Source: Nemertoderma westbladi
Lineage: Eukaryota > Animalia > Xenacoelomorpha
Direction: 5' to 3'
Length of the DNA stretch: 49,093 nt
NCBI GenBank assembly: GCA_032718475.1
Contig: JAUCBJ010002368.1
Location: forward strand, 1 to 49,093
Below, piece by piece: positions 50 to 38,778 of the stretch. A program made the position numbers and the translations under genes. The notes beneath the pieces were generated by a model. That model made no database searches. It saw nothing but the letters and a program-made list of their open reading frames with translations, and was not told the origin of the DNA. Position 1 is the stretch's first letter, and each line of letters begins with the position of its first letter.

Positions 50-3000
50 GTGTTGGATGCAATTGATGTGGCTAGGTTAGCGGCGAATCAAGCTAAATTC
101 GATGAACAACTCCGCATCGCTAGAGACCAAGAAGAAAGGGTGAAGAAAAAACGTATAGAAGATAGAAAGACAGCAGCAGCGGCAGTGGCAGCGGCAGAAG
201 CGGAAAGAAAGGTGGCAGCAGCAGAAGCGGAAAGAAAGGCGGCCGAAGCGGAAAGAAAAATAGCAGTGGCAGAAGCAGAACGGAGGGCATCTGAAGAGAC
301 AACCCAACTAGAGTTGGAAAATCTTCAAGAGAGACAAGACAACGTTAATAAACAGTTAACAGCTAGTAATATGCAGATGATGAATAGATCTACTCCCAAA
401 AGACAGGGTTATACATCATCTGAGGAAGGCGATACCACCGACACTGAAGGCAAAGGAAATAGATCTCACCTAAGCCGACGTAAAAGAACATTCCACCGTC
501 AGAAATTGCCTGATTTGCCTCCAGCTGTTAGAAGGCAACTAAATAACACCAACTTAGGTAGTACAGAACCCACAGACCAAATAATTACAATAGAGATACT
601 CCCTACTATAGTAGATGAGCCTGAAATAGTTAGGCCTGTTCCCGAAGCCACCTTTTCGGTCGTAGAGACACCTGTACTCCCTGAACCTACCTCTCAATTC
701 CCGTTGCACAGCACTAAGCTACCTGTGCCCAGCAGAACAGTCCGTGAGACAGTTCATGCCCTGGACTCCGAGCGAAATATTCATGATTTGTCGCCCGTTG
801 TCCCTCGTCCGCCCGCTACAACGTTGGCGGATCCCGTTTCGGCGGTTGATTGGGTGGACGAGAGACGGCGGGGGATGGACATTCTCCTCGAAAAGATGGA
901 GGAGAATCGAGAACGCTCCTCCCAACAGGTCCGAGAGTTAGAAGGAACTGTTCAACAGTTAAAGGGAACCGTAAAGGAAAGTAGGTTAGAGTTGCAAGAA
1001 GTACAGCAAAATATCGCGCTAGAACGTGATAAATTAGTAAATTTACAAAAGGGTATACCGCCACCCCTTGTAACAATGTGTCAACCTGTTAGGTCTGAAG
1101 TATCTCATGCGCAAGGTGTGGAGCCTACACGCATCTATACTGCTAGCGAAGTAGAAACTCCTATAGTGAACCCTATTAAGGGTAATTATAGACCTGTTGA
1201 TAATGATATTCCCTATAGACCGGATCATAATCCGAGAAATTTATATACCGATAACTCGATATTAAATAACACGATGGCCCAAGAAAGTTTTACGCGTCAA
1301 ATGGCTAGAACCGAAGCCCGGCAAGCGGTAAAGGTGGGAGAGATCGTCAAGTTCAATGGAGATGAGATGAAATGGTTACCTTTTAATGAATATTATAAAG
1401 ATAACATACAGAACTCTGTGCTATCTAATGGAGAGAAACTTAGATTCCTCATCGAGTGCTTGGAAGGATCTCCCAAGTTAATGGCGTTAAAGTTTATTGG
1501 ACATCCTGACGGATTAAGACAAGTTTGGGATACACTAAACATCAGGTATGGTAATAGGAATAACATAGCTGGTTATTTGTATGCAAAGTTGGTAGCGCCC
1601 CGAAAGTTTATTAGCAGCGGAATTATAGAGTTTTCCGATGAGATTCAGGAGATCTGCAGACAATTAGATTGGCTAGGTAAGTCTCATGAGTATCAGAATA
1701 CTATGGTTATTAGAGCAGTGGCTTCTACTTTACCGAAGGGTGGAGTAGGTACACGCTGGGATAAGAAAGTGTTATATATGATGGAACAACAACGACGAGA
1801 CCCTACCATGGCTGATCTCATGTCATTCCTAGATGGAGAAGTGAAATTACAGCTCCTGAAACTGTCCAGAGAGAAGACACCGGAAAACAAGGTAAGTGAA
1901 AAACCCGTCTCTAGGAGAAAGGTAACACCAGTGTGTTATACAGATGATGGCGAAAGCCAGACTTCTCAAGGAGAAGATAGCGGGAAAGACACTGACAAAT
2001 CTTATAACGTAAATAAAATGCCTAAAGATCAGGTAAGTAAATTCAAGTCTCGAACAAATGACAGGAGAGAACAGGTAAGAAAAACTCCTCCTACGTCTCC
2101 CAAGAGAATTCAGGTGAGAAAGCCCGAAGAAAGGACAAGTGTACACAATGTTACTCAGAGTAAGGTAAGTAACATCAAACCGAAATGTGCGCTATGTGAT
2201 GGGACCCATCGCTTAAATATGTGTGATGAATTTCTAAAGAAATCATTAACTGAGAGACGTGAAGTCATGTGGGACAAGCGGTTGTGCTATAATTGCCTCA
2301 GACAAGGACACCAACGGCGAACCTGTTACTCTGACACAAGATGTGCTAAGTGCGGTGCGAAACATCATATCTTGTTGCACACTGAATTCGAGAGAAATAG
2401 TCCGAGTCAGGTAAGTGATTCCGAACTACATGTCCAATTCAGTGATGTGAACGACACTGATCAATCAGAGATGGAAGGATTCTATACGGACGAGTTCTCC
2501 GACGAAAACGAATCCTGTTACATGATAAATACCACAGTGTATCGAGCACTCATCTATGAAAAAGATACAGACATTGACCTCGCTCTAACCACTTCTGATC
2601 GACAACCATTTTGGAAAGCGCCAACTTCCAATGTAGGGATTAGAGAATTTCCTGTGGTACAGGTAAGGGTCCACGGACCGAAAAGGAGTTATGTAGTGAA
2701 CGCCCTCCTTGACTCCGGTAGTACAGGAACATTCATCGACAAAGAGCTAGCCGAAGACATATTTGATGGACAACCCAAGTTCCGAACTAAGCTAAACATG
2801 TCAGGAATTATGCAAGTTTGGAAATCCACAGTAACAGCGGATTATTATGTAGGTGCGTTGTCCACCCCCCAGGACGAACTAGGAGAACATAGCATAAGGT
2901 CAGTGAAAATGGTGGCTATAAAGAACTTCGCTACTACTCAAGCAGACCTTTATAATTGGGACGAGGATGAGAGCATCCAACATCTTAAGATACCTCGATT

Positions 3001-6000
3001 CCAGACAGATTATCCTGGAGTGCAAATACTCATCGGTCAAAATGCGCATGAAGCGCTCGAGACATTAGAGAAACGACCTGCTCAACCGCAACCTCTACAA
3101 GTTTATGCGGGAAGAACTAGAGTAGGTTGGTACTTTACTGGCCCTTCCCGTAGAACTCTAATGGAAAGATTACCTAAAGAGCAGGTATATCAAGCGCGAG
3201 AATGGGAAGTTGAGAACAGTGAGTTCGACGATCCAACTGAGGGAACTCCATACTCCTCAGACAACGATGATATACATCAACTCTTTGATGAGGAGAATGC
3301 CATCGATCTCCTTAAGGAAAGCGAGACTTGGCAAAATCAAGTGAACTTATGTCAACTCCTTCACCCATCTGAGCGAGACGACTATAACGACGAGCTTAAT
3401 GACGTCATTGAACGTTATAATGCCAAGACTCGGGATGAACATGCCGTGAGATTCTTTACTCAAGAGGTCGTAGAGCCCAACTCCTACGATAAGGCCCTAT
3501 CGGTGGAGGAAGAAAGAGCCAAGCAGATCCAAGCGACAACTACTCGTTTTCTTAAAGATCAAGGTAGGTATGAGATCGGACTTCCTTTCCGAAAGCGAGA
3601 ACCAAAGTTTATTAACAACAGACCTTTGGCGGAGAAAAGAATTGCTCAACTACATCGACGCCTTACGGCAAATTCTTCAGCTAAAGAAATGTATAAAACA
3701 CAGTTGAAGAAGTTCATTAGCAAGGGATATGCGGAGCTAGTACCGGAAGAAACCCCTATAACTGAGAGAACGTATTATTTAACTCACCATTACGTTCCCA
3801 AACCCGGTAAACCCCATGAAGTACGAGTGGTGTTTGACGGTTCCGCCCTTTATTTGGGCCAATCTCTTAATTCTGAATTGTTACCCGGACCCAACTTACT
3901 TCAATCCTTGTTGGGAATACTTTTAAGACTAAGACAATATTCCATTGCTTTCGCCTCAGATATAGAAGGCATGTTCTTACAAGTCAAAGCGCTGGATAGG
4001 GATCGAGATAGCCTACGATTTTTGTGGTGGCCTGAAGGAGACCTCAATAAGAAACCTGTGGAATACTGGATGACCATCCAAGCTTTTGGGATAATCTCGA
4101 GCCCTTCAAACGCCTGTTCCGTGGTACGCACCACTGCGGATGACAACCGAGACGCCTTCTCTAAAGAAGTGATCGACAATATTAAACGAGACATCTACAT
4201 GGACGATAATCTGAAGTCCCTTCCATCAGTCGAAGAAGCCATTGAGGTCGCTAAAGGAACGGTAGAATGCTTAAAGAAAGGTGGATTTCGATTAACTAAA
4301 TTCACCAGCAACTCCCGTGAGTTTCTGGAGTCGATCCCGGTAGAAGATCGAGGAACAAAAGACCTAGATCTAATAAAGGATGATCTCCCAGAAACTAAGA
4401 CCCTTGGTTTGAAATGGGACACAGAAAGAGATATCCTGTTTTTCCAACTAAAACAGCGAGATAATCCAGTTCGGACTAAACGGATATGTTTAAGTAACCT
4501 GAGCACTTATTTCGATCCATTGGGATTTATTAGCCCAGTAATATTGATTGCTCGGAGTCTAGTACAACAAATGTGGCTTGAAAACCACTCATGGGACGAT
4601 CCACTTAAGGGAGAATTATTAAAGAAGTGGATGAAATGGGAAGATTCTCTACCAGCCATCGAAAACTTCATAATTTCCCGTTCATATTTTGGTCATGTTC
4701 TCCCTACGTATTCATATCAACTCCATGTGTTTGGAGACGCCAGCGATATGGGAATAGGTATAGTAGCCTACCTAAGGGTGGAAACTCCGGACGGAATTAA
4801 AGTCGCCTTGGTCACCTCTAAGGCATTAATAAACAACAAGTTGAAAGTTCCTCGAGCGGAGTTAAAAGCGGCTCTATACGCTACAGCCATCGGCCGGAAT
4901 GTAACAGAACAGATCGACTATCCCCTGGAGAAAACTGTCTATTGGACCGACGCTTTACTCGTGTTTGAGTACATAACCAATGAAGTCTGTCAGTTCAGCG
5001 TCTTCGTTACCAACAGAGTAGCTATTATACTCAGTCGCACGACGATGGATCAATGGAGACATTGCCCCGGAACGATTAATCCAGCGGACATCGCTTCCCG
5101 GGGAGCAACTCCACAAGAACTGGTAGATACTCCAGACTGGTTAGGTGGACCCGACTTCCTCTACAAAGAAGAAGAATAATGGCCTCCTCATCTTACTACA
5201 GCAGAAATTAGACAGGCCAAGGGAGCGGAGAAAGTCAAACCTAAAACTCAGGCGAGTAAATCGAAGTTATTCAAACCCACAGTAGATCTGTCTGTACTAC
5301 ATACTTCCGGAGACGACGCTTTGGATCAGAAACCCACAGACACAAATAAACTCGTTGTGGAAATCCGTGATAAGGATTGGAAATCTGGCATACCAGACAT
5401 CTCGCAAGGACTCTCACCTCTTCTGCAGAGAGCGATGCATCACTACAGTTCTTGGAATCGGCTTTGTAAGGCCGTTACATATTTAAAGAGATGTTTTCAC
5501 CATCACTACTCTGGGATGAAAACAAAGGGTGATACCGCTCCAATCACATCAGTGCAGGTCCATGTTATTAAAGATCTCCCCAAATATAAGGTACCCAACA
5601 AGTTTCTGAAGGAGAAGATCAGTTATCAGGAGCATGAAGAAACCAACAAACAGATGCTGAGACTCTTACAATGCGATGAAGATTCCGATAAGTATTTCCT
5701 GTTGTTGAGAAATCCACAGATGCGCTTAAGGGATCGTTTCTCTAGCACAATGATAGATGGGTTGATACGTGTTGGAGGAAGGTTAACAAATGCCCCATTA
5801 TCCTTTGATACTAAGTTCCCCATACTCATTAGAAATCTTGAAATACAAGTCAAGATGATTGTAGATGTTCACAGCAAACTTTATCATGCTGGCAGAGAAC
5901 GAGTTCTTAGCGAAATTCGAACTCGCTATTATTTTTATAAACCCCGTAGAGCTCTGAACCAAGTTCTTAGGAACTGTATACCCTGTAGGAAAGCATTCAG

Positions 6001-7081
6001 TAGGCCTTTAACACAGAGAGAGGCAGAATTACCTAGGGAACGAGTAAGCTTTTATGAACCACCCTTTACTAATACCGGTGTGGATTTATTTGGCCCTATT
6101 GAAGTATATCGTGCTAGGACTATAGTCAAGAGATGGTGTGTAATCTTTGTTTGTATGACTTGTAGAGCCATCCATCTCGATATGGTGAACGATTTATCTA
6201 CCAACAGCTTTCTATTAAGCTTACGACGACAGATCGCTCGCTTTGGCACTAGCAACACGATGAGATCTGATAAGGGAACAAACTTCATTGGTGCCAACAA
6301 TGAAATCAAAGCTTACGTCAAAGATTGGAACCAAAGACAGGTGGACGACCAACTACGAGTAACAGCGTCTAGTTGGACCTTCAACGCCGCCGACGCCCCT
6401 TGGTGGGGAGGAAGTTGGGAGAGATTAATAAGAAGCGTGAAGACAGCATTTCATTTTATAGTGCCTTGCCGCGCTTATCTCACCGACGAACTTTTGCGGA
6501 CGTTAATGGAAGAAATCGCCGCCTATCTCAACGAGAGACCGCTTATGCCAGTCTCATCGAGTCCCGATTCCCTGGAAGCGCTAACACCCGCGCACTTCCT
6601 ACTAAAGAAACCTGTAGCCATGCTCCCACAATCGGAAATCACAGACGGAGACGAATACTGCCGACAAACTTGGCAACTCATGCAGTTGTTATCCCGTCGT
6701 TTCGCTGACCATTTCGAAAAACATTATCTGCCCACGCTACAACTTCGAACTAAGTGGTTTGCGCAGCAAGAAAACGTCAGCGCTGGAGACATGGTGCTTA
6801 TTGTGGATGTGGATCTTCCACGTAAGCGGTGGCAGACAGGTCGTATCATCGAGACACACATCTCGGATGACGGTTTGGTGCGATCGGTAGAACTCGTCAT
6901 CATGCGACGTAACTTCAAGAAACCGGGAATTGTCTTCGAGACGCAGCAGCTCAATCGCCCGGTGGGACGTTTATGTTTACTGGAAAGAGACAGAGAACTC
7001 TCCGGAAACTATGGGAGACAAGATACTCTTCCCACGACCACCTCCCTAATCCAACAAACATCTAGGGACTCCCCAACTTAA
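50..7081 (+). pseudogene. BEL/Pao gag-pol polyprotein, N-terminus cut by the window edge, with one in-frame TAA at 5177-5179 upstream of integrase
   Basis: Three Gag Zn knuckles (CALCDGTHRLNMC, CYNCLRQGHQRRTC, CAKCGAKHHILLH), protease LLDSGS, RT YMDD, RNase H HVFGDAS..NPADIASRG, integrase HSKLYH..CIPC, GVDLFGP, SDKGTNF, GGSWERLI. ORFs 50-5179 and 5321-7081 share a frame; copy 2 has GAA at the same codon (48471-48473). Confidence 0.93.
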
Positions 7082-7910: not shown

Positions 7911-8724
7911 ATTTAACTATCAAATAATAAAATTTACGGGAATAAATTTAAATTCATATATTTAAATGAATTTAATAAATTGTCATTTTGTACAATTTAT
8001 AACATTCCCAAAATTCCATTAATTAATAGATCATGGGAGCGGAGATTCACTCTATTAAGTGTATTTGTGTGCGAGAATCTCCAATGTGTAGTCAATAGCC
8101 GATAAAATTCATAGAATCATGTATAAAGGGGATATTGACCATTAAAGAATTACTATTAAATAGCATCCCAGATCTGTATGCATGAGAATTACCCTAATTC
8201 TACCGCTAGCTTTCCATAATGTCACCATGGCAACAACCACGCTAGAATTAGAAGTGAGTTAAAAGAACAATAGAAAGCATGCCCCATTGAATAGCATAGG
8301 GAATAAATAGCGCACTGCTAGTATCCAAGGATACATAATAAATACAGTGACATTCTGGAAGGTACTGACTAACGGACAAATGGCCCGAATGTGTGCAGTT
8401 TGTTACAGTTGTGTTGAATTTGTGCGTTTGTAGGTGAATGTTACTACTAAGGTGTGTTTACAGTAGCAAGTCGCAATTGTGAAAGTAACCCTTACTCTCC
8501 AAGAAGAACCTGCAGTACATCTAAGCCTTTGGGACGGACAGTTAAGTGACTTGTGCCGGTTATCGTTGTCGTTGTGTAGCTACATCGTTGGCGAAAGCAC
8601 AGCGACGACGGTACATCGGCGCTGAGGATCTTACACTGTCCGGGGGCAAAAGAGGGGTAGGCAGCGACGCCCGCTAGCCTAATATATATAGACTCATTAT
8701 AATATTGATAAACTCATAGCAGAT

Positions 8725-9348
8725 ATGACTGAGTTGATAGAAGATGATCTTGGTATCAGGGAGAGATATACTCTACCTTTACAAGCGTTTGTCGATAGCT
8801 TGATACGCGGCGACGCTGGTACAACTACTACGGAGGATGATGGTCGTTATATCGAACCGCCGATGTCCCCGGAGCAACTTACGCGTGAATTGGACTATAG
8901 AAAGTTCACCGCTCGCTATACGCATCGCAATGGTACGTATATGGACTTCTTAACTACCGGCCACCCTATCGATTTACACGATACGGACGATGTGGATACC
9001 GAAAGGGAAATGGTTTTATTTAAATATCATACCCAACGGAATCGGAACGATAAGACAAGAATAGAACACGAGAACTCTATTCGAAACCGACTCGAAAGAG
9101 AAGACGTTGAAGAACCGGATAAACGTAACGACTTCAACGATTATCTGGAATTCTTGAGAGAAACATACCTCAATATTGCCAGTCAACAAAATCTCAAAAC
9201 TCGATATCCTCAAGGTATACATCATGACCCTATGATAGAACTCAAACGACTCTATTTCACTATGATGTATCTTACCGCCGATCGACCGCTACCTGTTGTC
9301 CCAGATAGCTTCAAACAGATGGAGGAATATTGTAAAACTGGAGAATGA
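8725..9348 (+). CDS. Accessory ORF of the BEL element, 207 aa, acidic/helical, function unknown
   Basis: ATG-initiated open frame between pol and the 3' LTR; the next ORF starts 24 nt after its stop; no recognisable motif. Confidence 0.6.
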   Translation: MTELIEDDLGIRERYTLPLQAFVDSLIRGDAGTTTTEDDGRYIEPPMSPEQLTRELDYRKFTARYTHRNGTYMDFLTTGHPIDLHDTDDVDTEREMVLFKYHTQRNRNDKTRIEHENSIRNRLEREDVEEPDKRNDFNDYLEFLRETYLNIASQQNLKTRYPQGIHHDPMIELKRLYFTMMYLTADRPLPVVPDSFKQMEEYCKTGE

Positions 9349-9372
9349 TCACCCGCGTTTCCTCTGCAGGAC

Positions 9373-12300
9373 ATGCGTCTTTGGTATTACTGTGACGAAT
9401 GCCCTAGACCCAATCAGCAAACGGAAAGACATAAACATCCGCGGAGACGTTGCGCTAAACACAGTTTTACACGATATACTTACGGGAGTTTCGAGCGAAA
9501 CCTGTTCGACGTGTCCCCTGCGGTCGCTCGACTCAAGCGATCCTTGAACAAACCGATGATCAGAGTTCCGGAATACTCGGTCAGACCTCCGCATTCCTCG
9601 GTTAGACCTCAAACTCTTGACCCTAATAGTATCACGGACCCTCCCGAACTGTACTCACTGTTCAAAGATCTAGTGTTACCCGAACAGTTGATCGGTGGCA
9701 CTCCGGTAGTAGTCTCACGAGACATTCGCCAACCCTACCTAGCTGGATTGGGACGTGGTCATCTAATATCGCCGTTTAACCCATACAACCGTCCCGGCTT
9801 CACCTCTATCCAACCCGTTACAGAAGTCGAAGAGAGCGTCGTACGAAACGCATTAGACGCTATTCGGCAGAAAATCGGAAAGGGAACGTACGATTGTTTG
9901 GAGAAGCGTAAATTGCAGCAACAAGTCCAAGCGGTGAAGGAATTAGCTTTACCCCAGTTCGATAGAGAAATACAAAATCTCGAGGAGGACATTGAACGTG
10001 GACGAACCTACTCTTTACAAGAGTTTCTAGATGAGCGTCTACAACAACAAGCGGAGGAGAATCAGCTCGAGGAGAGACATATAGAACTGGATGAGAGAGA
10101 AGAAGCGGCTTTAGCTCAACCAGAAGCGCAAATCCTTATGACGGATCTCTACTCTAAAACCATTCTTCATCCCTCGATGGTTCCCCATTTCGGAGACAAA
10201 CTTTTTGCGATGGCACAACCCCAACCGGTTGATATCAACCTAAGATCTCGCGATCTTATCGCCGACACTCCTCTGTTGCAGCGTCCGCCCATCGAACCCG
10301 CTCGTGTCGATGGTATACTCGTTGAACCTCCGGACAATAGAGCCGATCTTGTCCATCGCATGGTACACGATGTAAACATACGCGCTAGACCTTTACCGGA
10401 CTCGTTTTATGGGATCACCCTTATTACGTCAATCTAAAACAATATTACATGGTAAAACCGGAAGATCCTACACATAGTCTGAAGTTTCTACCGTTAATAA
10501 ATCCTCTCGATCTAGTCGAACTCGAACAACTGCAAAAACATCTGGATCAGTTAGTTAAAGTAAACTCGTTTCGAAAACCATATAACGTTTCCAGAATAGA
10601 GAAAGAAACAATACCTCCGTATAATCTTGATGGATTCATCAAAACTCGTTTAGTGCACTGGAATCTTGATGTGTTATTCGAGGAGGAAAGAATACAACGA
10701 TATGGAGATGTGGAAACATATACCACGCAATGTTTAAAGTATAAAGACCTGCCTAATGCTAGCGAATGTGCTACCTTGTGGCATCCTGTGGGAATGACAC
10801 TCGAAAACGCCACTAAAGAGTGGAACGAAACTCTTAACGTTATCGAGATGTATGGAGTTGTCACTTACGATAACGAAGGTAGCGTTCCGGTTGGAGAACT
10901 TGGAACTACGCGGATGATACACATACGAGGACTCGCTGGTTCTACCCACGTATTTACTCGAGCATGTTCCGACGTTATTGATTATTCTTTTGAAACTCTT
11001 ACTGAGACACAAAAGAAACTCCGACATGGACAATTTGAACTCGCGCAGCGTTACGTCACCGACACCGAGCGCAAGCCGGCCATGGGTATCGATGGATCGA
11101 TGTTACCCCAACCCGTGCTCGAGATGCTGTTTAACGAAGGAATCCTTAAAATCGGCTCAGCTGTTTATGGAGACCTACAGAACGACTTTCGGAATATGGA
11201 GAACATTCCATACCCCTTCGTTGATACTCAGCTGATTGCTCCTTGGGCAGAAGGCCGAGGTTTCTTCCCCACTACGTATGCGAATACACCCAGCGGAATT
11301 ACTAAAGTACAACGAACCTCCATCGGACATCTTGCCTTTCAAGAATACGGATAGAATTTCAAGGTTGGAAATCCTATAAATTACCAACAAGTATACGGAG
11401 ATCATTATTCTCGTTTATACTTTGATGGACCGTTGACCGCACCTGGCGCCGTGTATAGCTTTATGAGTGTTCCACTTCGTCCCTCCTTAGCTATATACAC
11501 GATTTTTGAAAAGGCAGCACTTGCCGGTTGGCTAGCCGATGTGTGCAGTCGTACCATACGCGCCCATCCCTTAATACTTGGAACCAAACTCGCCAAGTTA
11601 GATGAACACAATAAGTTCATCCGCTTTGAATGTTTCAGGCGCTTTCTGACTCCGTTCCGTAACGTTGATAGTCAGTTCAAGGACCGCGCTCTGACCAAAC
11701 TCAGCCTGAGAGACTCAGCGGCGGAGAAGCTAAACAGCGCGGGATTTGCCCTTTTTCAGGACGTTTGTATACAGAACTTGCACTCATCTGTTATACAAAG
11801 ACCCCGAATACCCACGGGTTATTCTGTCGTCGAAGTTCAGACAGTGGGTCTGCTTGCTGAGACAGCCGCACCTACCTCAGCTATGCAATTGGAAGACGAA
11901 CCAATATGCTTAGAAGCTGAAGCGATTCAGCCTACAGCGCCCCGGAGCAGCGATAACGACTACGTCTTAGAGTGGTATCAAGGTCCACAATGTCTCACCG
12001 CATACGATTATCGACACGCTAACTATGTTTCTCGAAAACGTTGTCGATTATGCGCATCGAGAGACCATTTCACTCCTATGGACTCAGACGTACCCTGTTC
12101 CTATTTCCATGAACAACCAATGATGGAGATATATTGTGCGTATTGCAGACTTAATAACTCTCATATTTTTGCAGTCTGCCCCCAATTTATGACTCAATGC
12201 CACCACTGTCAACTTAAAGGACATGCCAGTTATAATTGCCCCTTTAATCACGATTTAGAGAGCGTAGATGAAATGATTACCCTGCGCTACATTCGAGCTT

Positions 12301-12971
12301 GGGAAGCGAACGCGGATTTACATTGTGAGTCCCGTCATCGATACTACCCTGGACGCTCTTACGAGGGAGTTTACGCGTTCCATCCTTATTTATTAGCGTC
12401 TGTGGAACAAAAAACACGCGTACCGAGTTACGAGCTAATGAAGCGTGTTGGTGAGTGTATTTCCACTAAATTTGTTAGAAGATACCTTAGGAACGTCAAT
12501 CCTAACGATATTACTTCATACCATTTGATCAATTATATCCGTCAAGACCCTGAGTATGGCGACTTATTTATCAACTCGCACCCTGAGTTACAGGAAGTAT
12601 CTCGACGGCCCTAGGAATATCGAGCCCGAGAACGCGAGCTGGAAAGAACTATTAAACCAAGGAAGTTTCTTACCACCCACGGTCCGCCTACCGCCATTGC
12701 CCAGACAACCCGTCAAGGACCCGTAGGAGCTGCTGTCCTGAGGCGCGCCCTAAAGGCTGTTAGACCTCGCTCCACGGAAGTTGATATCGATCAACCAGGT
12801 ACCTCGACCGGCGGATACACCGATCGCAATCCGAAACCTTCTGATGCAATTGTATTGCACCCTTCACCCAGGAGTTACAGCCCTCCTAGTAAAGTGGCTC
12901 GCCCCAAAGAGAAAAGGACTCTTACTAGCCTCAAAAAACTCCGTAAACGCCGTCCACGTAAGAAAGACTAA
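9373..12971 (+). pseudogene. Accessory gene: Cys/His N-terminus and coiled coil, DEDDy 3'-5' exonuclease-like domain, three Zn knuckles, basic NLS-like tail (~1200 aa if reconstructed)
   Basis: 10449-11354, 11433-12614 and 12615-12971 are one frame broken by TAG at 11352 and 12612. 9373-10437 may join by a 1-nt shift near 10405. Motifs: VVTYDNEG, LPQPVLEMLFNEGILKIGSAVYGD, FVDTQ, CRLC..H, CAYC..H..C, CHHCQLKGH..C, and C-terminal KKLRKRRPRKKD. Confidence 0.7.
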
Positions 12972-13049: not shown

Positions 13050-14247
13050 TGTAAAAGCTTTTGCGTCATTAACCGGTTATTTTCCCTTAAAGTACTCTGT
13101 GGTTGGTTTGCCAGGCATAAAAAGGCCGTGTCCTTGCTGTACTGGTGTTTTGGATGACATAAAAGTCATTTCTTCTGTATTTGTACTGTATTTGTACTTT
13201 AGAGGACATAATCCGCAATCTCGTGACGCGATAAGCTGGATACTCTTGAAAACCGTGTCGCTACCATGACGACGGTTAACAGCTGATATTGCCACGTCGA
13301 CGTTTCTTTGTTCTCTCGTTGTTCGGTTGACCAATCAGAGCGTTTTTTGTCTCTGTGTTGGAGGTGTATACAGAACTCAGTAGTTCAGTGTTATGTTTTT
13401 GCCCAGAGCCTAAGAACACCGGCTTTTGGCACCTCCGTGTTTCAGTCTTTAGTCTTACATTAGTAGGCTTAATTATAGAACGTATATCTGTTATCGAGTT
13501 ATATATCCATACTAACCAAACGATTCATACATACAAACCTTATCGAACTATATCAAACCATAACTAAACAATTTATACATTAATATTACTGCTTTTGCTG
13601 TCTGTTGTTCATTATATTTGTTGATGAAATATTATATCGGAATACTGATCAATAGTCAGACACCCCACCTTCATGATATACTAAAGGTTAGAGAGACCGG
13701 TTACAGATAAACGATTGCAACCTATGTTGAGTGGTTTGAAGTGAATCTAATGCTATTTCATATGCCCAACATAAATTGTCTGTTGCTCTCTTTATACGTG
13801 ACCAAATTTAGTGAAGGTCGGCAGATTAGTGTGCAGTATTGTGCAGCATTGTGTATGAGTGTAACTGATAACAAAGCATCTCCTAAAGAATGCGCCATAT
13901 ACGTAAATCTATAGCCTTTTCGTTGTGTCTAGTTTAAGTCACAACTCTGTTTACATATTTAGAGCGCCACGTCCTAAAGGAACTGTTAATATTTCCCGAA
14001 AGTGAATAATATTTGTCAGAGATTATATATTACGATCAGTCGAATAATACGGTAGGCTTACATCATCAATCATTAAGCTCCGAACTCAGTCTCCCGGGTA
14101 TATCCAACGGGTGAATGATTGCGCATAGACTGGCTTCGGCTAATGTAGTGTATCAAATACTCGTCATAGGCTAAAGACTATCTATCATCCAAAAGACATT
14201 CTAATTTTGGCAGGTTAAACTGTCAAAGGTCTTTAAAAGCGCAAACA
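13050..14247 (+). repeat. 3' LTR of BEL copy 1 (1198 bp, TGT...ACA)
   Basis: Shares the first 14 nt and the last ~850 nt with 38779-39976; similarity ends at AAAGCGC(A/G)AACA in both. Confidence 0.85.
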
Positions 14248-23979: not shown

Positions 23980-24628
23980 AATCAGTAATCAGTCAAGCAG
24001 TCAGTGTATTTCAGTATTTAAGTCTCTATTTAATATCAAGCATAATACTGCAGTATTTACTTAAACTGTTAAAGTCAATGACTAACTGACTGTACTGCAG
24101 TACCGGTACTAGTACTGGCCAGCTGGCTAACTAGCAGACTATTACAGATAGGCCCTACTGTCAGACTGTAAAAAATAGTAAATGCTATGATTGTACACTG
24201 TACCACTGCAGCCATTTACTGCTGTCATGCCAGCATACTGTACTGAAGTCACTCAGTACTGGTACACGTTAACAAGTACGGCAGTACGGTAGGCTACCTA
24301 CAGTACACACCTCTACCACAGTTAGTGAGTTAGGTACCGTACTGTAGGTAATTTTTAGCAGTCAGTGTCAGGCCGTCTGGCCGTCTGTCCGTGATAAATT
24401 AATTAATTAAATTGAAAATTCGTAAATCTATAAATTATGAAATGAATTAGACCTACAGTAGGATTGATTATGAGCGATTGGCGAACGATAACCATACTTT
24501 ATTTTTTTGTTTAAATAAATAATTAAATTTTTTAAAAACTCCGGCTCCTGCTCCGGCTCCGGCCAAATTGTCCAACTCCGGCTCCGGCTCCGGCCAAATC
24601 CCAACTCCGATCGAGCCCTAGCGGGAGG

Positions 24629-26870: not shown

Positions 26871-27460
26871 CACGTAGTCGGCGAGCCTTGGCATACGGTT
26901 CATATAGGGTAAATGGGGCATGTCCGTCTGTCTGTCTGTCCGTCTGTCTGTCCGTCTGTCTGGTAAATGTTTGAACGCGAATTTCTCGGCATCGCTGGTT
27001 CGGAATTGAACCAAACTTAGTAGGCAAGTAGTAGAGAGAAAGTTTAGAAAGTTTGTAAAGTTTGGTGAAAAATCATGCAGTCTGACGTCAGCTACGACAG
27101 ATTTTGTGGTTTTTAGAAAATGTTAAATTTCTCGGGAAGGCCTCATTTTCTTGAGCTGAAATTTTGGTGGCCTGTAGAGAATCATGAAGTCTATCTTTTA
27201 CGAAATTGAAAAGTTAAGACATTTAATTGGGGATCCGCTAGAGACTCAGAAGTAATGACATAGGCCTACCGGTACGGTACTGCTGTACAGTGCTGCACTG
27301 GTAAGTACAAAATTGCAGAATAACAATTTGACACCACCTAGCGGATTAACATATGATTGTATATCGAATGAATACATTTATAGCATGGGATATGGGGTTC
27401 AAACTAGACATGCCCCATTTGCTCTATATGAACCGTATGCCAAGGCTTGCCGACTACGTG
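26871..27460. mobile_element. Non-autonomous element with ~54-bp inverted repeats and a (GTCT/GTCC)n microsatellite (DINE/Helentron-like or MITE)
   Basis: CACGTAGTCGGCGAGCCTTGGCATACGGTTCATATAG..GGGGCATGTC at 26871 is mirrored at 27407-27460; microsatellite at ~26921-26961. Confidence 0.7.
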
Positions 27461-27795: not shown

Positions 27796-27932
27796 CTACT
27801 TCCTTTCAATAAGGATAAAATAAGAGTATTAGTCTCAAGCGACAATGAATATAGACAAACCAAACTACATTTCTAAAAGTCTGTTAAACAGTCTAAGATG
27901 TCTGAATATTAAGAGTGTATTATCCTTCTGAT

Positions 27933-29595
27933 TCAATCTTTGTATCCATAATACTGTGGTGGGGCTCGTCGACGAGTGGGGTACACCCTCTTGAGGGGCA
28001 TATCTGGAGGATCATCGTTAATGTCATCAAGACTTTCATTCCGTACAGCTATGTCAATATTACCATTTCCATGTTGGCTAGCAGCCTCTGCGGTGGAATT
28101 TGGCGGTTGTTGTGGACCAGAGCTTGTTGAGTGAGGAGAAATAAGTTGACGTGATGGTCGCTGGAAATTGTTCTCATGTTGAGTATCAACAGGCTTCAGA
28201 GCTCGGCGGTTACGTGTTATAATCCTATTATTAGGTCCATTGATCATTATCTTATCTCCCCGAATTTCTTGGACCCTGTGGCCATTGTAGGAATATCCTG
28301 GAGCATCATAGTTCTTGACCATCACAGGCTGGTTTACTTCAAGTGGCTCCAAAGTCTTGACCCTGTGTCGCTGATTGTAGTCTTCCAATATCTTTGCACG
28401 ACTTTCAATATAATGGTTGGTTGGGACTACTGGTGGAGGATGGGAAAGTTTTGGGAGACGGCCCTGCATATTTGAAGCAAGATGGCGATAAAGGACAGCG
28501 TAAGGTTGTTCTCCAGTAACTCTGTGGCGGCTGTTTCGAAGTGTGAAAAGAACGGCTGACAGTCTAGATGTAAATGAACCGCTGGAAGATGGTGTAGCAC
28601 GCATCATCTTTTTGATCACCCGGTGCGGACGTTCGATCATTCCGTTAGACTGAGGATATCGTGCTGAGACTGAGATAAGCTTACAGTTTAGTTTATTAAG
28701 ATAATTAATAATCTCCTGAGAACGAAACTCTTTAGCATTATCAGAGACTAGGCCCCTGGGCAGTCCAAAGCGAGCGAAAATAACATTTAGCTGTTGGATA
28801 ATATTAGAAGATACTGACGATGATGATGGCAGGGGTATAGCTTCTATGTATCTTGAGCCATAATCAATAAGGGTAAGACATTTGTTGTGTTCGATCTCTG
28901 CACAATCAATAGCAATGCGTTCCCAAGGTTGGAAAATTTCGGACTGGATCATTGGCTGAGGGACAGGCAAATCCGCAGCTAGTTTACATGTATGACAGTG
29001 TTCTACGAACAGTTTAGCAGCTCGAGTAATCCCAGGCCACCACACATTCATATTTAGCACATCAGTCGTCTTTGTTATGCCTGGATGACCTTCATGTGCT
29101 AACTGAAGCGTCTCTGATCTTAGTGAAAGAGGAATCACAATACGTGTATCACGAAGGAGAATTGGTAACCCACACACATAGTCGATACATAGTTCATTTC
29201 TAATAGTATGGTACGTACTGTCAATTCTGGAAAGAGAATTCCAATTCCCGTCTGATACACTATTAATTATCTTAGATATCTCTGGGCATATTTGTGTTTC
29301 CTGAGCAATCTTGGTGGTATTCACAAACTTAGATTCCAATATAATGTTCACGAATATGTCAGAATGTGATTCAGAAGCAGAGGATGAGAATGCTGGGTGA
29401 GGCGCCCGTGAGAGAGTATCAGAAACAACATTATATTTCCCAGGAATAATTTCTAGAGTGAATGAGTATGGTTGGAGTGCGATTAGAAACCTTATGACAC
29501 GGGCAGGACACTGATCCAGTGGTTTATTAAATATGGCTTTAAGGGGCTTATGGTCGTTGTAGACAGTAAACTGAAGACCAATCTTAAATAACTGC
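27933..29595 (-). pseudogene. 5'-truncated Ty3/Gypsy pol (end of RNase H plus integrase)
   Basis: DHKPL, PGKYNVVSDTLSR, AHEGHPG..CHTC, IAIDC, SDNA, PQSNGMIER; RT and gag are absent. Confidence 0.9.
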
Positions 29596-29673
29596 CCTGC
29601 CCTTCCCACACAAATAAAATAAAATAAAAATAATAGTACATAGTAGGTACGCAGTTAGTAGTTAGTAGGTACA

Positions 29674-30005
29674 GTTAGAGGGTACGTAGTACCGCTAGTT
29701 AGTTAGAGAGTTAGTAGGTACGTAGTACCTAGTTAGAGGAGAGTTAGAGGGTACATAGTACCGCTAGTTAGTTAGAGAGTTAGTAGGTACGTAGTACCTA
29801 GTTAGAGGAGAGTTAGAGGGTACGTAGTACCGCTAGTTAGTTAGAGAGTTAGTAGGTACGTAGTACCTAGTTAGAGGAGAGTTAGAGGGTACGTAGTACC
29901 GCTAGTTAGTTAGAGAGTTAGTAGGTACGTAGTACCTAGTTAGAGGAGAGTTAGAGGGTACGTAGTACCGCTAGTTAGTTAGAGGGTACGTAGTACCATT
30001 AGTTA
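29674..30005. repeat. 69-bp minisatellite, ~4.7 copies, each with two GGTAC-GTA-GTACC mini-hairpins
   Basis: GTTAGAGGGTAC.. starts at 29674, 29743, 29812, 29881 and 29950. Confidence 0.92.
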
Positions 30006-30515
30006 GAAGAGAGAGAGTAAGAGGTAAAAGGGGTATATAAGATATAGATATTAGTTAGCAGTTAGTAGCGAGAGGGGGGCATGTGAGTGCGGTTGTATAG
30101 GTCGTGTAGGCCGCGCGACATATACTGCTGTACTACACAGGCCCACAGAGTAGGCCAGAATGTGGATTAGGAGATAGAATAATCCATAGGCAGTAGCAAG
30201 TAGTAGGAAACAATAAGGTAGTAGGATTGAAGTTAAAATAGATAGACAAAATAAATAGAATAGGGCTGAAAGTTACGAAATAGTGGCAACACAAGGGAAG
30301 TCGTTCTAGAACATAATAAAAGTAACGGACAGAAATTGTAAATTAGGCTCATTTACTAGCTTCAAAATTAATTAGTAACAAATTTAGGTTAAAAGGCGCA
30401 GTTAGGTAGAAAATAGGCCATTATCGAACCGTACAGAACATCTTAGATACATCACTCATCTGTATTGCGCCTTGGTAAGGCACCACCCTGCAGGTGAGCG
30501 AGTGTAGTGTTCGGA

Positions 30516-33019
30516 ATGGCGAGCAAGTTGATCAGGAAGAGAAAGGCGGAGTCAGGAGGAAAGGAGATACTGGTGGATTTCACTGAGAGGCATCCGGAAG
30601 AGAAGACGAGAGGATACTACGAGAAGTTGGAAAGGGGTCACGCGGCACGAGCGCTGCAGGATCACTTCCGGGAGATGCACGAACAGCGGCTGGTCGGGAC
30701 CTACGGGACGCCGTCGCTGGACAACGCGATCTTCCAACACTTCCACTACGTGGTGAAAGGGGACGAGGCGAAGTTCGGGATTCCGAAGTATCCGAGGGAA
30801 TCACCGAGGAAGGACTGGAAGAGATTCATAGAGTCCGTCAACAGGGGAGGATATATGATCCTAGACGACGAGGGAACCGTGGAAGACGAGGCGGGTTCGA
30901 GATGAGGATCAGCGGGGTCGGCCAGGACCATACTCCTACATTTGGCCGCGCCAAAAGGGGACATCTTCCTATTCGATCTAGGAACGTATGGGAAGAAGGA
31001 CGGGCCGAAACTAAACCGGTTACCGAAAGCGGTACAAGTCTTGGTAAGAGAGAAGTCGACGACGAAAGTGGGATCGGCGATTCGCAAGGATGCGGAGAGA
31101 ATCATCGGTCCGGACGCCACCAACCTCCTGGATATGCAGAAGGTCTTTATGGCTATGACGGCACCGGATGGGTTGGGGCTAGTCGAAAACACGGGCTCGT
31201 ATGCCACAAACCGATGGACTGGGGGAAGTTCAGGGAAGAATACGGAGCAGAACTAGCGAACTCGCTAAAGTGGGGAGCGAGACCGGGAAAGCAGGAGGTA
31301 TATCAATTCCGCAGAGGAGCGATAAAGGTATATCAGAAGCGATATATCCTGCAGGAAGATTGGGTGATAATAAGTTTGCTTAACTTATTTATGACCGTGG
31401 TCATCGAGAGGGAACCAGAAGCATTTCTGTTATCGGGATCACCCCTAAGCTACAGGAGAGCCTTTAAAACGGCCTTCGACGGTCTGGTAGACCACCCGGG
31501 GCTGAAGGGCGAGTCGGTGTACTACAACAGCCGACATCTAGTAGACGGGGAGACAGATACGCCGTATCAGAGATGGGAGCAGTTAGAGACGGACAGACGG
31601 GAAGCAAAGCGACTGGAAGAAGTCGCTAGACAGGAGAGGATAGAAGCGGAGGAGAGGGAAGAGGAGGCCAGGACGCAGAGTTACGGCTTCGAGGAACAGG
31701 CGGGCCTAGACGAGCTTCATTGGACTTCGTCAGGGAGTTCGGGGGAGTCTCTGGGGCGAGAATTGGGATGGACGGTGGGATCGCCGAAACAGTCGACGTC
31801 GGGGTTGCAAGAGATGCCCATACCAGCGGGCGCCGAGGGCGACCAACCGCCGAGGAACTTGAGGGAGCTAGAGGGATGGAGAGCTACGGGCGAGAGCCAA
31901 GGCGGGAAGGGACATAGTGGGTCCACCAGGATACCGGGGTTGGAGGTACTGCCAGAGGAGGAGGAGGACGACGACGAGTTTGGAGAGATGCCGCCCATCG
32001 AGAGGATAGGCCACTCGGACACGGACTGGGTTGGCGGAAGGGTGGTGACGGCCAGTGGGGCGAGGGCCTTCTGGAACAGATCCGGCAAGCGGACCTGGGT
32101 GCATGAGGAGCCGGCGATGGATTTCGCGGGGAGCACTATCAGGTTGGGCGAGCAACCGGGGACGGCACCACGGATAGTATTCGGGGAGACGATGCCCGAG
32201 AGGGGCGGAGAGATCGATGTAGATAGAGACAGCAACGTGGAGAAGTTCGCCTACCAGCGACTCCATAGACCGCGGAGATCGCTCGGGACGAAAGACGAGG
32301 TGGGACGGGAGACATTGGTACTCGGCTGCGACTACTGTGGGAGACAGACCCACCAGGAAAGGAGCTGCTTGTACCGGTTCCAGAAGGGAACCTTTTGTCT
32401 CTACTGCCGCGAGCCGAGCCACAGGATGGGGGCGTGTCCACGGTTACATAACCGATGTCCAAAGTGCCACTTTCGGGGACACTACGGACGCCAGTGCGAC
32501 TGGATGGACGACGAGGAGAAGTTCGCAAGATTCGAGGAGTGGGCCGACGTCGGGGCTATGACGCGCCAGCGCATGAAGGAGTTCAAGTGGGGTTTCTTCC
32601 TTATAAACCAGGAGACTCACATGGAAATCATAAAGCGGAGGTTACCGTTCACCTATCAAGAGATAGCAACGGCGGCGTCGTACGCCAGAGTTATGAACAC
32701 ACAACGATACTTGGACAGGTGGACGCCGCAGAACCGAAAGGAGTTTAGGGATTTCTTGGCGGAGCACGTACCGCAAGCGATGAAGATGATCCTATGGGAC
32801 GCCACCAGAGGGAGACAACCAGGCCACTCTGAGGGGCCACCTGCGAAGCGGTATCGGGCACTAATAACACCAGCGCCCAAGGAGCCAACAACCGGAATCA
32901 GCAGGGAGGTGGCGGCGAAGGTCCGAAAGCAGAAAGCGGATTCCAGAGGAGCAGTGGTAACCAAGAAACGGCCCAGGGAAGAGGACGCCAGGGGGAACTA
33001 CCCCCGGGGGAACAGATAG
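30516..33019 (+). pseudogene. Accessory gene: DEDDy 3'-5' exonuclease-like domain, acidic linker, three Zn knuckles, basic tail (~830 aa if reconstructed)
   Basis: 30507-30905 and 30942-31256 are one frame broken by TGA at 30903; a shift near 31200 enters the 30902-33019 frame. Motifs: YMILDDEG, LLHLAAPKGDIFLFDL, LPKAVQVLV..TKVGSAIRKD, LLDMQ, CDYC..H..C, CLYC..H..C, CPKCHFRGH..C. Confidence 0.72.
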
Positions 33020-33730
33020 GTTCCCAAGAGCCAAGGGAGTGAGACTGGGACTGGGACGTGGTACGCCTGGAAGGCGCCGCGTGGGACGTACGAACTATTA
33101 AGTACAAATTTAATTAATGCAAATAATCATATAAGTGCAATTTGTATGTACGTACGTAGTAATTAGCAGTAAAATACATATGTTCGGAGTAAGTACTATA
33201 GTCATACAACCTTTCTCAATTAGCTACTGGGACTGGGGGGATAACTGACTATGGCACTATGGACGAGACACCCGACAATTTCACACTTCTTGAGTGCGAC
33301 GGCACGAGAGAGGGGGGGGAGATTCGTCAGGAGAGATGAAATAATCAAAGTGGGGTTGAGGGACGGAGTAATAGAGCGGAGTGCGGAGAGAGTGTGGGCG
33401 CAATCCTAGAGTGGGGGGGGGGAGAATAAGAGGCTGAGTGTGGGACGAGGAGGTCCGAGGGTATGAGAGAATTAGGATGGGAGTGGAGAAGAGATAGGGC
33501 GAGAGTGTTGGGGAAACAAAAGTCGCGTGAGAGGTGAGCGCGATCGGCCCGACATGAGACGCCAGGCACACAGGGTAGCGTTATCATACCCATAGGGAGC
33601 GGCCTGGAAAGCCGGCTCCGAGAGAAAAGAATTCCACCCCACACCCGATACTAGATCGGGATCCAGCGGGATTGTAGCGCACTTTTTGGTTGATGCTATC
33701 TTCTTACCGGGAAGATAGCATGGGGGGGAG

Positions 33731-34260
33731 TGTTAGCTTATTCAATCCCGCTAACATCCCATAAAGTTATAAGCCGATAAGCAATATTGGGGGCCACGAA
33801 ATTGGGTAATAACCAACTCGTGCCACCCCAATGAGAATGGGAAGGAGAACCACACAATAAGGGTCGGGCCAAACCCCTAACCCAAAGAGAACAGGTGGAG
33901 TGAACGGGAACACTCCATGGGGCGCCAACAAGGGTATCAACCAATCAGAGGGGGGACAGGCATCGATTAGGTAGAGTAATTAGGCCAACCGTGCAATATA
34001 ACCAGTAACCTAATAATCAGTAATTCAGTTATCTCAGTGCAGTAGTGCTAGCATAGGTTAGTTAGTTTAGATAGGGGAGCACGGGACTTTAGTTACCGTA
34101 TCCCGCCTTCCATATATTATACTATCATATCTATATCTTATACCAATTATATACAGCGAACATCAGAACTCATTTACCGTTTCCATTTACTCTTTACACA
34201 CGGCGGGGACGCGTAAGCTAAACACCGGATAAATCGGGATCCCTCCTGGATCCCGTCACA
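33731..34260 (+). repeat. Putative 3' LTR (530 bp)
   Basis: TGTTAG.. directly after the PPT; CCAAT and TATATAA (~33995) inside; ends ..CCCGTCACA before an abrupt shift to AT-rich DNA. No second copy. Confidence 0.55.
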
Positions 34261-34494
34261 GATTTTAAATACTGCAAAATAGAATACACTTACAGATTAG
34301 CATATAAAAATTACTTTTAATTTCCATAACTATTACTCCAATTAGAAATATTGATAATAATCAAAAATGGAATATGTACAACTTCCATACAGTATATTTC
34401 GTCTACATTTCATCACTACATTGAGAGTAAGAAAAAAGACAAAATGAAAAGAAACATGCGTAACTCCGAGGAAATGTGAAATCTCACAAATACC

Positions 34495-34791
34495 CAGGTC
34501 TACCAACACATGAAGTATCTCCTTCAATGACTTACTACGAATCTCACTACCGAAAAATTAACAGAAAAAAACATAAAACTAATAACGTAATGAATATTAA
34601 ATACTTACAAGAAATACACCATTGTGTTATAATTAGGCCTAGCGTTCTTAGCTGCTTTAGCAGCCGTAGATTTATTCAATTTCTTTGATTTTAATACATT
34701 TAAAACGTGCACGACTCGACATTCCAGGAAACAATCCTCTACTCTTGTCCTCGCCGACAAAACGTCGGCAAGGCCGATTATTGCTGCCATT
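34495..34791 (-). other. Possible spliced coding fragment (two exons, 62-nt intron)
   Basis: Acceptor ..TTTTGTTATAG, exon 34791-34609, donor GTAAGTA, acceptor ..TTTTTCGGTAG at 34547; the join reads ..MVYFFEIRSKSLKEILHVLVDL in frame. Confidence 0.3.
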
Positions 34792-35180
34792 CTATAACAA
34801 AAATATAAATATACAATGTAAACAAGACAATACAATAATGCTCTCCATAGGGAAAAATATCAACCGGCTATATTGGGTCTCGAACCTGGTACCTAGGTTT
34901 CAAACTTATTGTTATCATCAGCCGGGTGAGTATACTGAGCTATTACACCGAATAAATATTTCGCTATGGAATGCGACATCATATTTAAGCCAACTAATCA
35001 CTCAAAGGAAATTACAACTTCGTTATTGCCGTGCTCTGCAAGAAAAGGCAACCATGCCTCAAAGAATAACTATTATACAGTGTTGTAGAAAACACTGTAA
35101 CCCCGTATTAATAATACGGGTATTAATAATATTATTAATAATAATATTAATAATATAATAATACGGACGGACAGGCTTCA

Positions 35181-37411
35181 TAACCACTACTAATATCGGT
35201 ATTTTGTGGGAGGTATCGCCTCTAAATGCAGGCTCGTACAATCGGATCTTAGTTCCCACACCCACTAACCACTACTAATATCGGTAGTTTGTGGGAGGTA
35301 TCGCCTCTAAATGCAGGCTCGTACAATCGGATCTTAGTTCCCGCACCCACTAACCACTACTAATATCGGTAGTTTGTGGGAGGTATCGCCTCTAAATGCA
35401 GGCTCGTACAATCGAATCTTAGTTCCCACACCCACTAACCACTACTAATATCGGTAGTTTGTGGGAGGTATCGCCTCTAAATGCAGGCTCGTACAATCGG
35501 ATCTTAGTTCCCACACCCACTAACCACTACTAATATCGGTAGTTTGTGGGAGGTATCGCCTCTAAATGCAGGCTCGTACAATCGGATCTTAGTTCCCACA
35601 CCCACTAACCACTACTAATATCGGTAGTTTGTGGGAGGTATCGCCTCTAAATGCAGGCTCGTACAATCGGATCTTAGTTCCCACACCCACTAACCACTAC
35701 TAATATCGGTAGTTTGTGGGAGGTATTGTCTCTAAATGCAGGCTCGTACAATCGGATCTTAGTTCCCACACCCACTAACCACTACTAATATCGGAAGTTT
35801 GTGGGAGGTATCGCCTCTAAATGCAGGCTCGTACAATCGGATCTTAGTTCCCACACCCACTAACCACTACTAATATCGGAAGTTTGTGGGAGGTATCGCC
35901 TCTAAATGCAGGCTCGTACAATCGGATCTTAGTTCCCACACCCACTAACCACTACTAATATCAGTAGTTTGTGGGAGGTATCGCCTCTAAATGCAGGCTC
36001 GTACAATCGGATCTTAGTTCCCACACCCACTAACCACTACTAATATCGGTAGTTTGTGGGAGGTATTGCCTCTAAATGCAGGCTCGTACAATCGGATCTT
36101 AGTTCCCACACCCACTAACCACTACTAATATCGGTAGTTTGTGGGAGGTATTGCCTCTAAATGCAGGCTCGTACAATCGGATCTTAGTTCCCACACCCAC
36201 TAACCACTACTAATATCGGTAGTTTGTGGGAGGTATCGCCTCTAAATGCAGGCTCGTACAATCGGATCTTAGTTCCCGCACCCACTAACCACTACTAATA
36301 TCGGTCGTTTGTGGGAGGTATCGCCTCTAAATACAGGCTCGCACAATCGGATCTTAGTTCCCGCACCCACTAACCACTACTAATATCGGTAGTTTGTGGG
36401 AGGTATCGTCTCTAAATACAGGCTCGCACAATCGGATCTTAGTTCCCACACCCACTAACCACTACTAATATCGGTAGTTTGTGGGAGGTATCGCCTCTAA
36501 ATGCAAGCTCGTACAATCGGATCTTAGTTCCCACACTCACTAACCACTACTAATATCGGTAGTTTGTGGGAGGTATCGCCTCTAAATGCAGGCTCGTACA
36601 ATCGAATCTTAGTTCCCACACCCACTAACCACTACTAATATCGGTAGTTTGTGGGAGGTATCGCCTCTAAATGCAGGCTCGTACAATCGGATCTTAGTTC
36701 CCACACCCACTAACCACTACTAATATCGGTAGTTTGTGGGAGGTATCGCCTCTAAATGCAGGCTCGTACAATCGGATCTTAGTTCCCACACCCACTAACC
36801 ACTACTAATATCGGTAGTTTGTGGGAGGTATTGTCTCTAAATGCAGGCTCGTACAATCGGATCTTAGTTCCCACACCCACTAACCACTACTAATATCGGA
36901 AGTTTGTGGGAGGTATCGCCTCTAAATGCAGGCTCGTACAATCGGATCTTAGTTCCCACACCCACTAACCACTACTAATATCGGAAGTTTGTGGGAGGTA
37001 TCGCCTCTAAATGCAGGCTCGTACAATCGGATCTTAGTTCCCACACCCACTAACCACTACTAATATCAGTAGTTTGTGGGAGGTATCGCCTCTAAATGCA
37101 GGCTCGTGCAATCGGATCTTAGTTCCCACACCCACTAACCACTACTAATATCGGTAGTTTGTGGGAGGTATTGCCTCTAAATGCAGGCTCGTACAATCGG
37201 ATCTTAGTTCCCACACCCACTAACCACTACTAATATCGGTAGTTTGTGGGAGGTATTGCCTCTAAATGCAGGCTCGTACAATCGGATCTTAGTTCCCACA
37301 CCCACTAACCACTACTAATATCGGTAGTTTGTGGGAGGTATCGCCTCTAAATGCAGGCTCGTACAATCGGATCTTAGTTCCCGCACCCACTAACCACTAC
37401 TAATATCGGTA
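35181..37411. repeat. 85-bp satellite, ~26 copies
   Basis: TAACCACTACTAATATCGG.. recurs at 35181, 35266, 35351 and onward, with only point variants. Confidence 0.97.
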
Positions 37412-38684: not shown

Positions 38685-38778
38685 TCTAAGATCTCGATTG
38701 CTGCAAAGCTATACAATAGAATTCTATTAAATCGCATCAGGGATCCCATTGAGAGACTGCTCCGTGGAAATCAGAATG

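Follow-up and report, generated by a model that had tools for sequence, protein, structure and literature searches.

The window, namely the whole 49,093-nucleotide stretch of the Nemertoderma westbladi contig that was analysed, encodes on its forward strand, between positions 30516 and 33019, a third open reading frame (ORF3) belonging to an LTR element designated element 2. The gene begins with an ATG at 30516, ends at 33019, and comprises a short N-terminal part, a predicted DEDDy exonuclease domain, an acidic linker, a Cys/His zinc array and a conserved tail. The exonuclease domain (30810..31420, forward strand), for which both a family profile and a structural model match EXD2, incorporates the ExoI D-x-E motif (30861-30869), the ExoII aspartate (31089-31091) and, at ExoIII, a tyrosine at 31343 and a glutamate at 31355. 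The array and its tail occupy positions 32315..32668 on the same strand, with the pattern C-x2-C-x4-H ... C-x-Y-C ... H-x4-C-P-x-L-H-x2-C-x2-C-x2-R-G-H followed by FE..AD.G..T..R....WGFF. The gene does not form one open frame, as a stop codon interrupts it at 30903-30905 and the frame changes near 31193. Over 30780-31420, the first base of this stop is another letter in 85 % and 75 % of the depth of two sequencing runs, and other host copies carry extra sequence near 31193, where the break represents a short deletion. As most host copies lack both lesions, these are particular to the window copy. Among the variable places listed for the host copies, 26/38 are third codon positions (p 1e-5), and this predominance indicates that the element 2 family of the host was under purifying selection.

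Upstream of the gene lies a spacer (29584..30515, forward strand) with a cut 5' end, from which gag-pol is absent and in which a 69-nt tandem repeat occurs at 29641-30017. Downstream, a polypurine tract (33722..33730, forward strand) directly precedes a 3' LTR of 530 bp (33731..34260, forward strand; TGT..ACA). With the TG..CA LTR, the tract before it and the repetition of the sequence in the genome, element 2 displays features by which an LTR retrotransposon is recognised. A second copy of the 530-bp LTR was not found within the 49,093-nt window, nor was a 5' LTR or primer site found at the 5' junction of the element. This junction (29583/29584) is abrupt and separates element 2 from a cut gypsy pol fragment on the reverse strand (27933..29583), comprising the RNase H end and integrase. 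Depth was summed over contigs from three DNA runs (two samples) across 27800-35050, and does not represent a copy number. It rises from ~100 over the gypsy fragment to tens of thousands in the bins holding 29584 to 34260, a step of >100-fold with its maximum over the LTR, in agreement with an earlier sequence-only reading which expected the gene to be common in the host genome. Contigs with the gypsy sequence continue beyond 29583 into different sequence at flank-level depth in all three runs, and one contig diverges from the window sequence at 34261; both ends of element 2 thus represent real boundaries. The gypsy pol lies on the other strand, is present at single depth and is continuous in other samples, and therefore abuts element 2 without forming part of it. 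The junction itself is absent from the contigs of the samples with depth data, and the simplest account would be a deletion spanning both elements, by which element 2 lost its 5' LTR and gag-pol and the gypsy element its 5' part. Element 2, which retains one LTR in the window, is a broken member of a highly repeated family and is truncated at its 5' end. The ten codons following the junction were considered as the end of a BEL integrase, and this was left unsupported as 0/41 pol tails match (2 % background). A run bearing a different organism label (X6) also contains pieces of element 2 at low depth over 30552-34057, most of them 90-95 % alike, and these could derive from a related family or from stray DNA.

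A homologous ORF3 is found in a BEL/Pao element (element 1) of the same window, whose gag-pol (1403..7081, forward strand) contains Peptidase_A17, DUF1759, DUF5641 and Integrase_H2C2 domains. Its ORF3 (8692..12971, forward strand) likewise encodes an exonuclease domain and zinc array, and is distinguished by ~700 additional N-terminal codons, three internal stops, one frame change and an exonuclease with three of the four acids (D-E-D-S). It is followed by a 3' LTR of 1198 bp (13050..14247, forward strand), which is 79 % like the sequence at 39179-39977 upstream of a second BEL element. Spacers of 0.9-1.6 kb occur in both elements. Four metagenome loci (L015, L059, L068 and L026) likewise have 470-920 additional N-terminal residues ahead of the exonuclease, comparable to the extension at 8692-10800 in the window, with Pfam giving no match in the extension of L015 or in the window pieces. 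The second BEL element (38779-49093) has a pol region 89.5 % like that of the first, while the similarity of its 1198-bp LTR to that of the first is confined to the 3' 800 bp (79 %). It has no TGG primer site directly after the LTR, and a 2.1 kb leader lies ahead of its gag frame.

The sequence-only reading had proposed distant homology between the two ORF3s on the basis of paired motifs, all of which are present in the translations in the order given. As it had also observed, there is no similarity between the two genes at the DNA level, the GC content differs (0.56-0.59 over 31001-33000 versus 0.44-0.48 over 9001-13000), and so do the LTRs (530 bp at 33731-34260 versus 1198 bp at 13050-14247). 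When aligned directly against shuffled sequences, the zinc region stands out clearly (score 87, z 9.3, 0/1000 shuffles), while the exonuclease domain does so more weakly (score 53, z 3.5, 8/1000). Word-index protein searches gave no match for either window gene, with the first alignment finding only one protein (P0001), single-protein locus scans gave no loci, phmmer against the PDB gave no real match and Pfam provides no name for either gene. With the BEL gene as query, a full HMMER search recovered three unnamed proteins that share its two-domain architecture (E 4e-6 to 4e-4). One of these, P0001, also aligns with the element 2 gene, over each of its two pieces (E 1e-6 and 7e-14). An exonuclease profile built from 44 metagenome loci only, excluding the window sequences, gives 46.1 bits for the element 2 gene, where the highest of 500 shuffles reaches 5.2, and a low 8.5 bits for the BEL gene, where the highest reaches 3.9. 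The zinc profile, also built without window sequences, scores the two genes at 81.4 and 40.3 bits, respectively (best of 500 shuffles 8.7 and 8.5). The two gag zinc-knuckle regions of the window reach 7.0 and 7.2 bits on the zinc profile, which is shuffle level, and profile-profile comparison gives probabilities of 95.7 and 97.4. Distant homology of both domains is thus borne out through third-party relatives and the metagenome-only profiles. A likeness shared merely among generic proteins is ruled out, because both window genes score above shuffles in both domains and above the gag knuckles. That the element 2 gene is a host gene, or resembles the BEL gene by chance as DEDDy and CCHC proteins may, draws on the weak direct exonuclease alignment (8/1000 shuffles) and on EXD2 scoring about equally over the first half of the domain. 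This explanation is nevertheless scarcely credible, given the purine tract and LTR after the gene, its repeat-like depth, the gag knuckles at shuffle level, the lack of any PDB zinc-knuckle match at E 10 and the recurrence of the two-domain order among the relatives described below. On the sequence evidence, the most suitable reading is that both window genes belong to a single BEL/Pao gene family, in which each represents a deep branch.

A degenerate zinc-motif pattern, which was built from five modules and would miss the BEL gene of the window, identified at least 120 metagenome loci, with flanks available for 80 among the matches listed; most continue into the family tail. Both counts, and the zinc alignment, include five loci (L025, L047, L087, L090 and L120) that look like chance matches to the pattern. 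Among the matches listed, the exonuclease domain is found in 44/51 frames with upstream room, always in the same order relative to the array, and the exonuclease set omits the seven frames without a match. In 24 relatives scanned with Pfam, no named family exceeds its cut-off. Scans of viral contigs with the tail motif gave no loci in one scan and ten in another. Close pairs of relatives show dN/dS values of 0.07-0.53 in 25/26 domain comparisons, with the remaining one saturated, and in the exonuclease domain of acid-poor pairs the values are 0.24-0.47. Together with the third-position bias among host copies, these values uphold the earlier suggestion of an old, selected, LTR-borne gene rather than a one-off host capture. 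Several loci depart from the common architecture. Four have a zinc module without a detectable exonuclease (L037, L064, L076 and L079, three of these behind a BEL pol), while P0002 has two zinc modules. A further five loci (L048, L078, L080, L083 and L088) are on contigs of ~10.2 kb whose ends overlap identically; two of these contigs are circularly permuted, and the contigs may represent collapsed repeats or one-LTR circles.

The carriers of this gene family, where visible, are BEL/Pao elements. Among the matches listed, a BEL pol is found upstream on the same strand in 45/80 flanked loci, with the remainder showing one downstream, two short ones on the opposite strand and none in 32 loci. 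Where at least 4 kb of upstream sequence is available, the BEL/Pao pol lies just before ORF3 in 32/36 of the loci listed, the four exceptions being a contig that the gene occupies entirely, a decayed locus and two matches attributed to chance. Pfam analysis of ten pol frames identified Peptidase_A17 and DUF5641 in seven and DUF5641 in the three partial frames, such that BEL markers are present in 10/10. Peptidase_A17 together with DUF5641, the combination taken to define a BEL/Pao pol, thus occurs in window element 1 and in metagenome carriers. With only the gypsy and LINE proteins of the window as queries, matches were found beside 0/68 of the listed loci of at least 2 kb; non-BEL carriers, those with a copia or DIRS pol included, could be missed here, since the pattern rests on five modules and the 120 matches listed are a lower bound.

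Phylogenies were constructed from those rows in which 250 or more exonuclease residues are present, and the ORF3 tree was compared with an integrase tree for 25 taxa, namely 24 with an integrase frame of at least 390 residues and the window BEL element. The two trees share 14/22 splits, no conflicting pair of splits has support of at least 0.95 on both sides, and the distances correlate at 0.84, with a permutation p that is inflated by kinship. This agreement favours descent of ORF3 together with pol. The window genes form long, poorly resolved branches at a distance from one another, in keeping with two deep BEL lineages. The sequence-only reading had interpreted the pair as a module shared between LTR lineages by swapping, and a BEL/Pao gene that moved to another LTR superfamily such as gypsy, with element 2 representing that lineage, would explain why the LTR, base composition and spacer of element 2 are wholly unlike those of the window BEL and why the tree does not place the two genes near each other. 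Exchange of a DEDDy ORF between retroelement types has moreover been proposed for the rotifer elements Juno, Vesta and Athena, according to the available text of PMC5408684. The evidence from the carriers runs against such a transfer. No non-BEL pol stands beside the 68 listed relatives, the pols that are visible are all BEL/Pao, the gene tree follows the integrase tree, and the adjoining gypsy pol is on the opposite strand, at single depth and continuous in other samples. Swapping is therefore considered unlikely, and ORF3 has probably been inherited mostly within BEL/Pao, judging from these sequences. The pol of element 2 is absent from the window, and its BEL label is accordingly derived from its relatives; it is likely another BEL/Pao family which lost gag-pol at this site. 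Alternatively, element 2 may be a non-autonomous LTR element that never had its own pol and spreads ORF3 by means of the enzymes of a helper, which would be in keeping with the missing gag-pol and the very high contig depth over ORF3. This is improbable, considering that the 5' end is an abrupt junction lacking a 5' LTR or primer site and that the relatives are autonomous.

A profile of 24 relatives matches human EXD2 as the sole PDB entry below E 0.2 (E 9.6e-11). Residues 31-150 of the AlphaFold model of P0001 superimpose on EXD2 with Z 12.4 and an rmsd of 2.5 over 108 aligned residues, and EXD2 ranks ahead of RICE1, NrnC, Rrp6, EXD1, WRN and Nibbler; the mean pLDDT of this model is poor overall (41), and reaches 60-77 over most of residues 31-140. 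A single-sequence model of the exonuclease domain of the window BEL gene has a pLDDT of 30 and is unusable. From the profile and model, the domain is predicted to be of the DEDDy type with an RNase H-like DnaQ fold, closest to EXD2. The ExoI D-x-E and ExoII D are present in both window genes (D, E, D). At ExoIII, the element 2 gene has Y-x3-E, as does P0001, and the BEL gene has Y-x3-S by the alignment used, so that a Y-x3-E common to both window genes was rejected. Among the 42 full-length relatives in the matches listed, 23 retain all four catalytic acids (accepting E at ExoIII), one retains three, five retain two and thirteen at most one. Eleven of the acid-poor relatives form one clade with full support; by sequence, this clade is one that lost the catalytic acids yet stays conserved. 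The zinc ligands are the invariant columns of the family. No zf-CCHC match above cut-off occurs in the window genes or the 24 relatives (best E 0.046 in the relatives), and no zinc-knuckle proteins in the PDB match the family profile at E 10; the predicted Cys/His array is family-specific rather than a generic knuckle.

In most relatives, ORF3 does not share the frame of pol or is separated from it by several stops, and would in either case need its own, probably spliced, RNA. Five of the 37 loci listed (L017, L042, L044, L049 and L088) have ORF3 in frame behind a single TGA. Its context is TGA-CGG in two loci, TGA-CAA-TTA in two and TGA-CAA-TTT in one, and UGA-CGG and CARYYA are described as type II and type I readthrough contexts, respectively, in the available part of PMC3542737. 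Furthermore, pol ends in TGA-C in 12/37 loci among the matches listed, including 11/14 of the acid-poor clade and 1/23 of the others, a contrast for which the Fisher p is inflated by kinship and for which five loci were assigned to the clade by likeness in the zinc region rather than by the tree. A pol fusion is found in neither window element. Where it occurs, fusion to Pol would carry the ORF3 protein into the particle.

On these grounds it may be envisaged that an EXD2-like host gene was acquired a single time, in an ancestor of these BEL elements, and has since descended alongside pol. The ORF3 protein would bind the RNA of its own element through the zinc array and travel with it into the particle, being delivered by a likely Pol-ORF3 readthrough fusion in one sub-lineage and elsewhere, likely, from a separate subgenomic RNA. 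Within the particle, such binding could protect or organise the RNA and the RNA-DNA hybrid during reverse transcription, and versions with four acids would additionally trim the 3' ends of the RNA or cDNA of the element. Binding is taken as the core activity because the acid-less clade is still conserved. The reading as an RNA-binding escort follows from the invariant zinc array, the dispensable active site and the handling of RNA-DNA hybrids by EXD2, which binds, digests and can protect these according to the text available from PMC13425236. The escort mechanism is considered about evenly balanced between holding and failing. The account as a whole, with a broken copy of a BEL/Pao ORF3 that encodes an EXD2-like domain and zinc array, an element 2 that is likely BEL/Pao and the escort mechanism, is regarded as probable.

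The main mechanistic rival retains this evolutionary account and differs only in placing the protein outside the particle, where it would counter silencing by trimming or sequestering host piRNA or siRNA, or help unspliced RNA escape nuclear surveillance, in the manner of Mut-7, EXD1, Egalitarian or CERV. EXD1, Egalitarian and Nibbler are among the fold neighbours, and the conserved acid-less clade also speaks for it. The available text of PMC10309623 describes the Cys-rich CERV as needed for the export of Cer1 RNA, and that of PMC5408684 raises a silencing role for the rotifer DEDDy ORFs. This mechanism is nonetheless rather doubtful, as the five relatives with ORF3 fused to pol suggest a place in the particle, and the closest protein by sequence profile is EXD2 and not a piRNA factor. 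An extension of the escort reading is offered tentatively. In it, a large branch of BEL/Pao would since deep history have carried an unrecognised fourth gene, derived from an EXD2-type nuclease and joined to a new zinc array, which one lineage converted into a catalytically dead RNA clamp that reaches the particle by readthrough from pol and acts there as a guard or editor of reverse-transcription intermediates.

The general theme is known from rotifers, where Juno and Vesta carry a DEDDy ORF3 after pol that is shared with Athena, as recorded in the accessible text of PMC5408684, PMC6431247 and PMC6338049. The ORF3 of Juno/Vesta and Athena/Terminon resembles the present gene in being a predicted DEDDy 3'-5' exonuclease gene downstream of pol with variant acid patterns (available text of PMC5408684). 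Compared by description, the family reported here differs in having BEL/Pao carriers and an EXD2-like domain joined to a large Cys/His array that has a distinctive tail, in following the integrase tree across the sampled BEL carriers rather than being exchanged, and in including an acid-less clade with a likely pol readthrough fusion. Metazoan EXD2 itself (PDB 6k17 series) is the closest match by profile and fold over ExoI-ExoII, with the same D-x-E and D motifs and, in versions with all four acids, Y-x3-D/E. The match to EXD2 is limited to ~120 residues, however, and the family differs further in an insertion located between the ExoII and ExoIII motifs, a zinc array unmatched to EXD2 and a location inside mobile elements. 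The plan of the Belpaoviridae, with LTRs, a gag-pol encoding PR-RT-RH-IN, a purine tract and an optional third gene after pol, accommodates the gene; the third genes described are env-like only, and the word exonuclease appears neither in PMC8742986 nor in the available portion of PMC3118150. CERV, encoded by the C. elegans gypsy element Cer1, is also a Cys-rich accessory protein of an LTR element acting on its own RNA. In the text available from PMC10309623 it is, by contrast, spliced from the gag region with no exonuclease domain named, and it serves as a functional analogy only. The available part of the Sinbad paper makes no use of the word exonuclease, and PMC3985635, in its accessible part, concerns the Pao RNase H. 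A literature search gave no paper on a BEL/Pao exonuclease ORF; Repbase entries and supplements were outside its scope, and prior mention is possible. Some nematode Cer BEL elements have extra 3' ORFs. The novel aspect is thus the EXD2-like and zinc-bearing ORF3 in BEL/Pao, within the known theme of the rotifer DEDDy ORF3.

BEL/Pao elements are usually described as having gag-pol and an occasional env, while a nuclease-plus-zinc gene appears to be conserved across many of them, with both seemingly active and inactive versions. Such accessory genes can be a stable property of a lineage rather than freely swapped cargo, and are missed by Pfam-based annotation. The family furthermore provides a large natural comparison set for the question raised by the rotifer DEDDy ORF3, namely whether it acts in processing, in silencing or in neither, along axes which include acids present or absent, genes fused to pol or separate, and exonuclease domains present or lost.

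The window also contains other repeated sequences. These include a GC-rich gypsy element whose pol frame is open (15752-20213, reverse strand), a LINE with open ORF1 and APE-RT frames (20422-23988, reverse strand), a 760-bp duplication (25077-26546), a MITE-like element with 54-nt inverted ends (26871-27460) and adjacent tandem arrays with 85-nt and 55-nt units (35096-38800).
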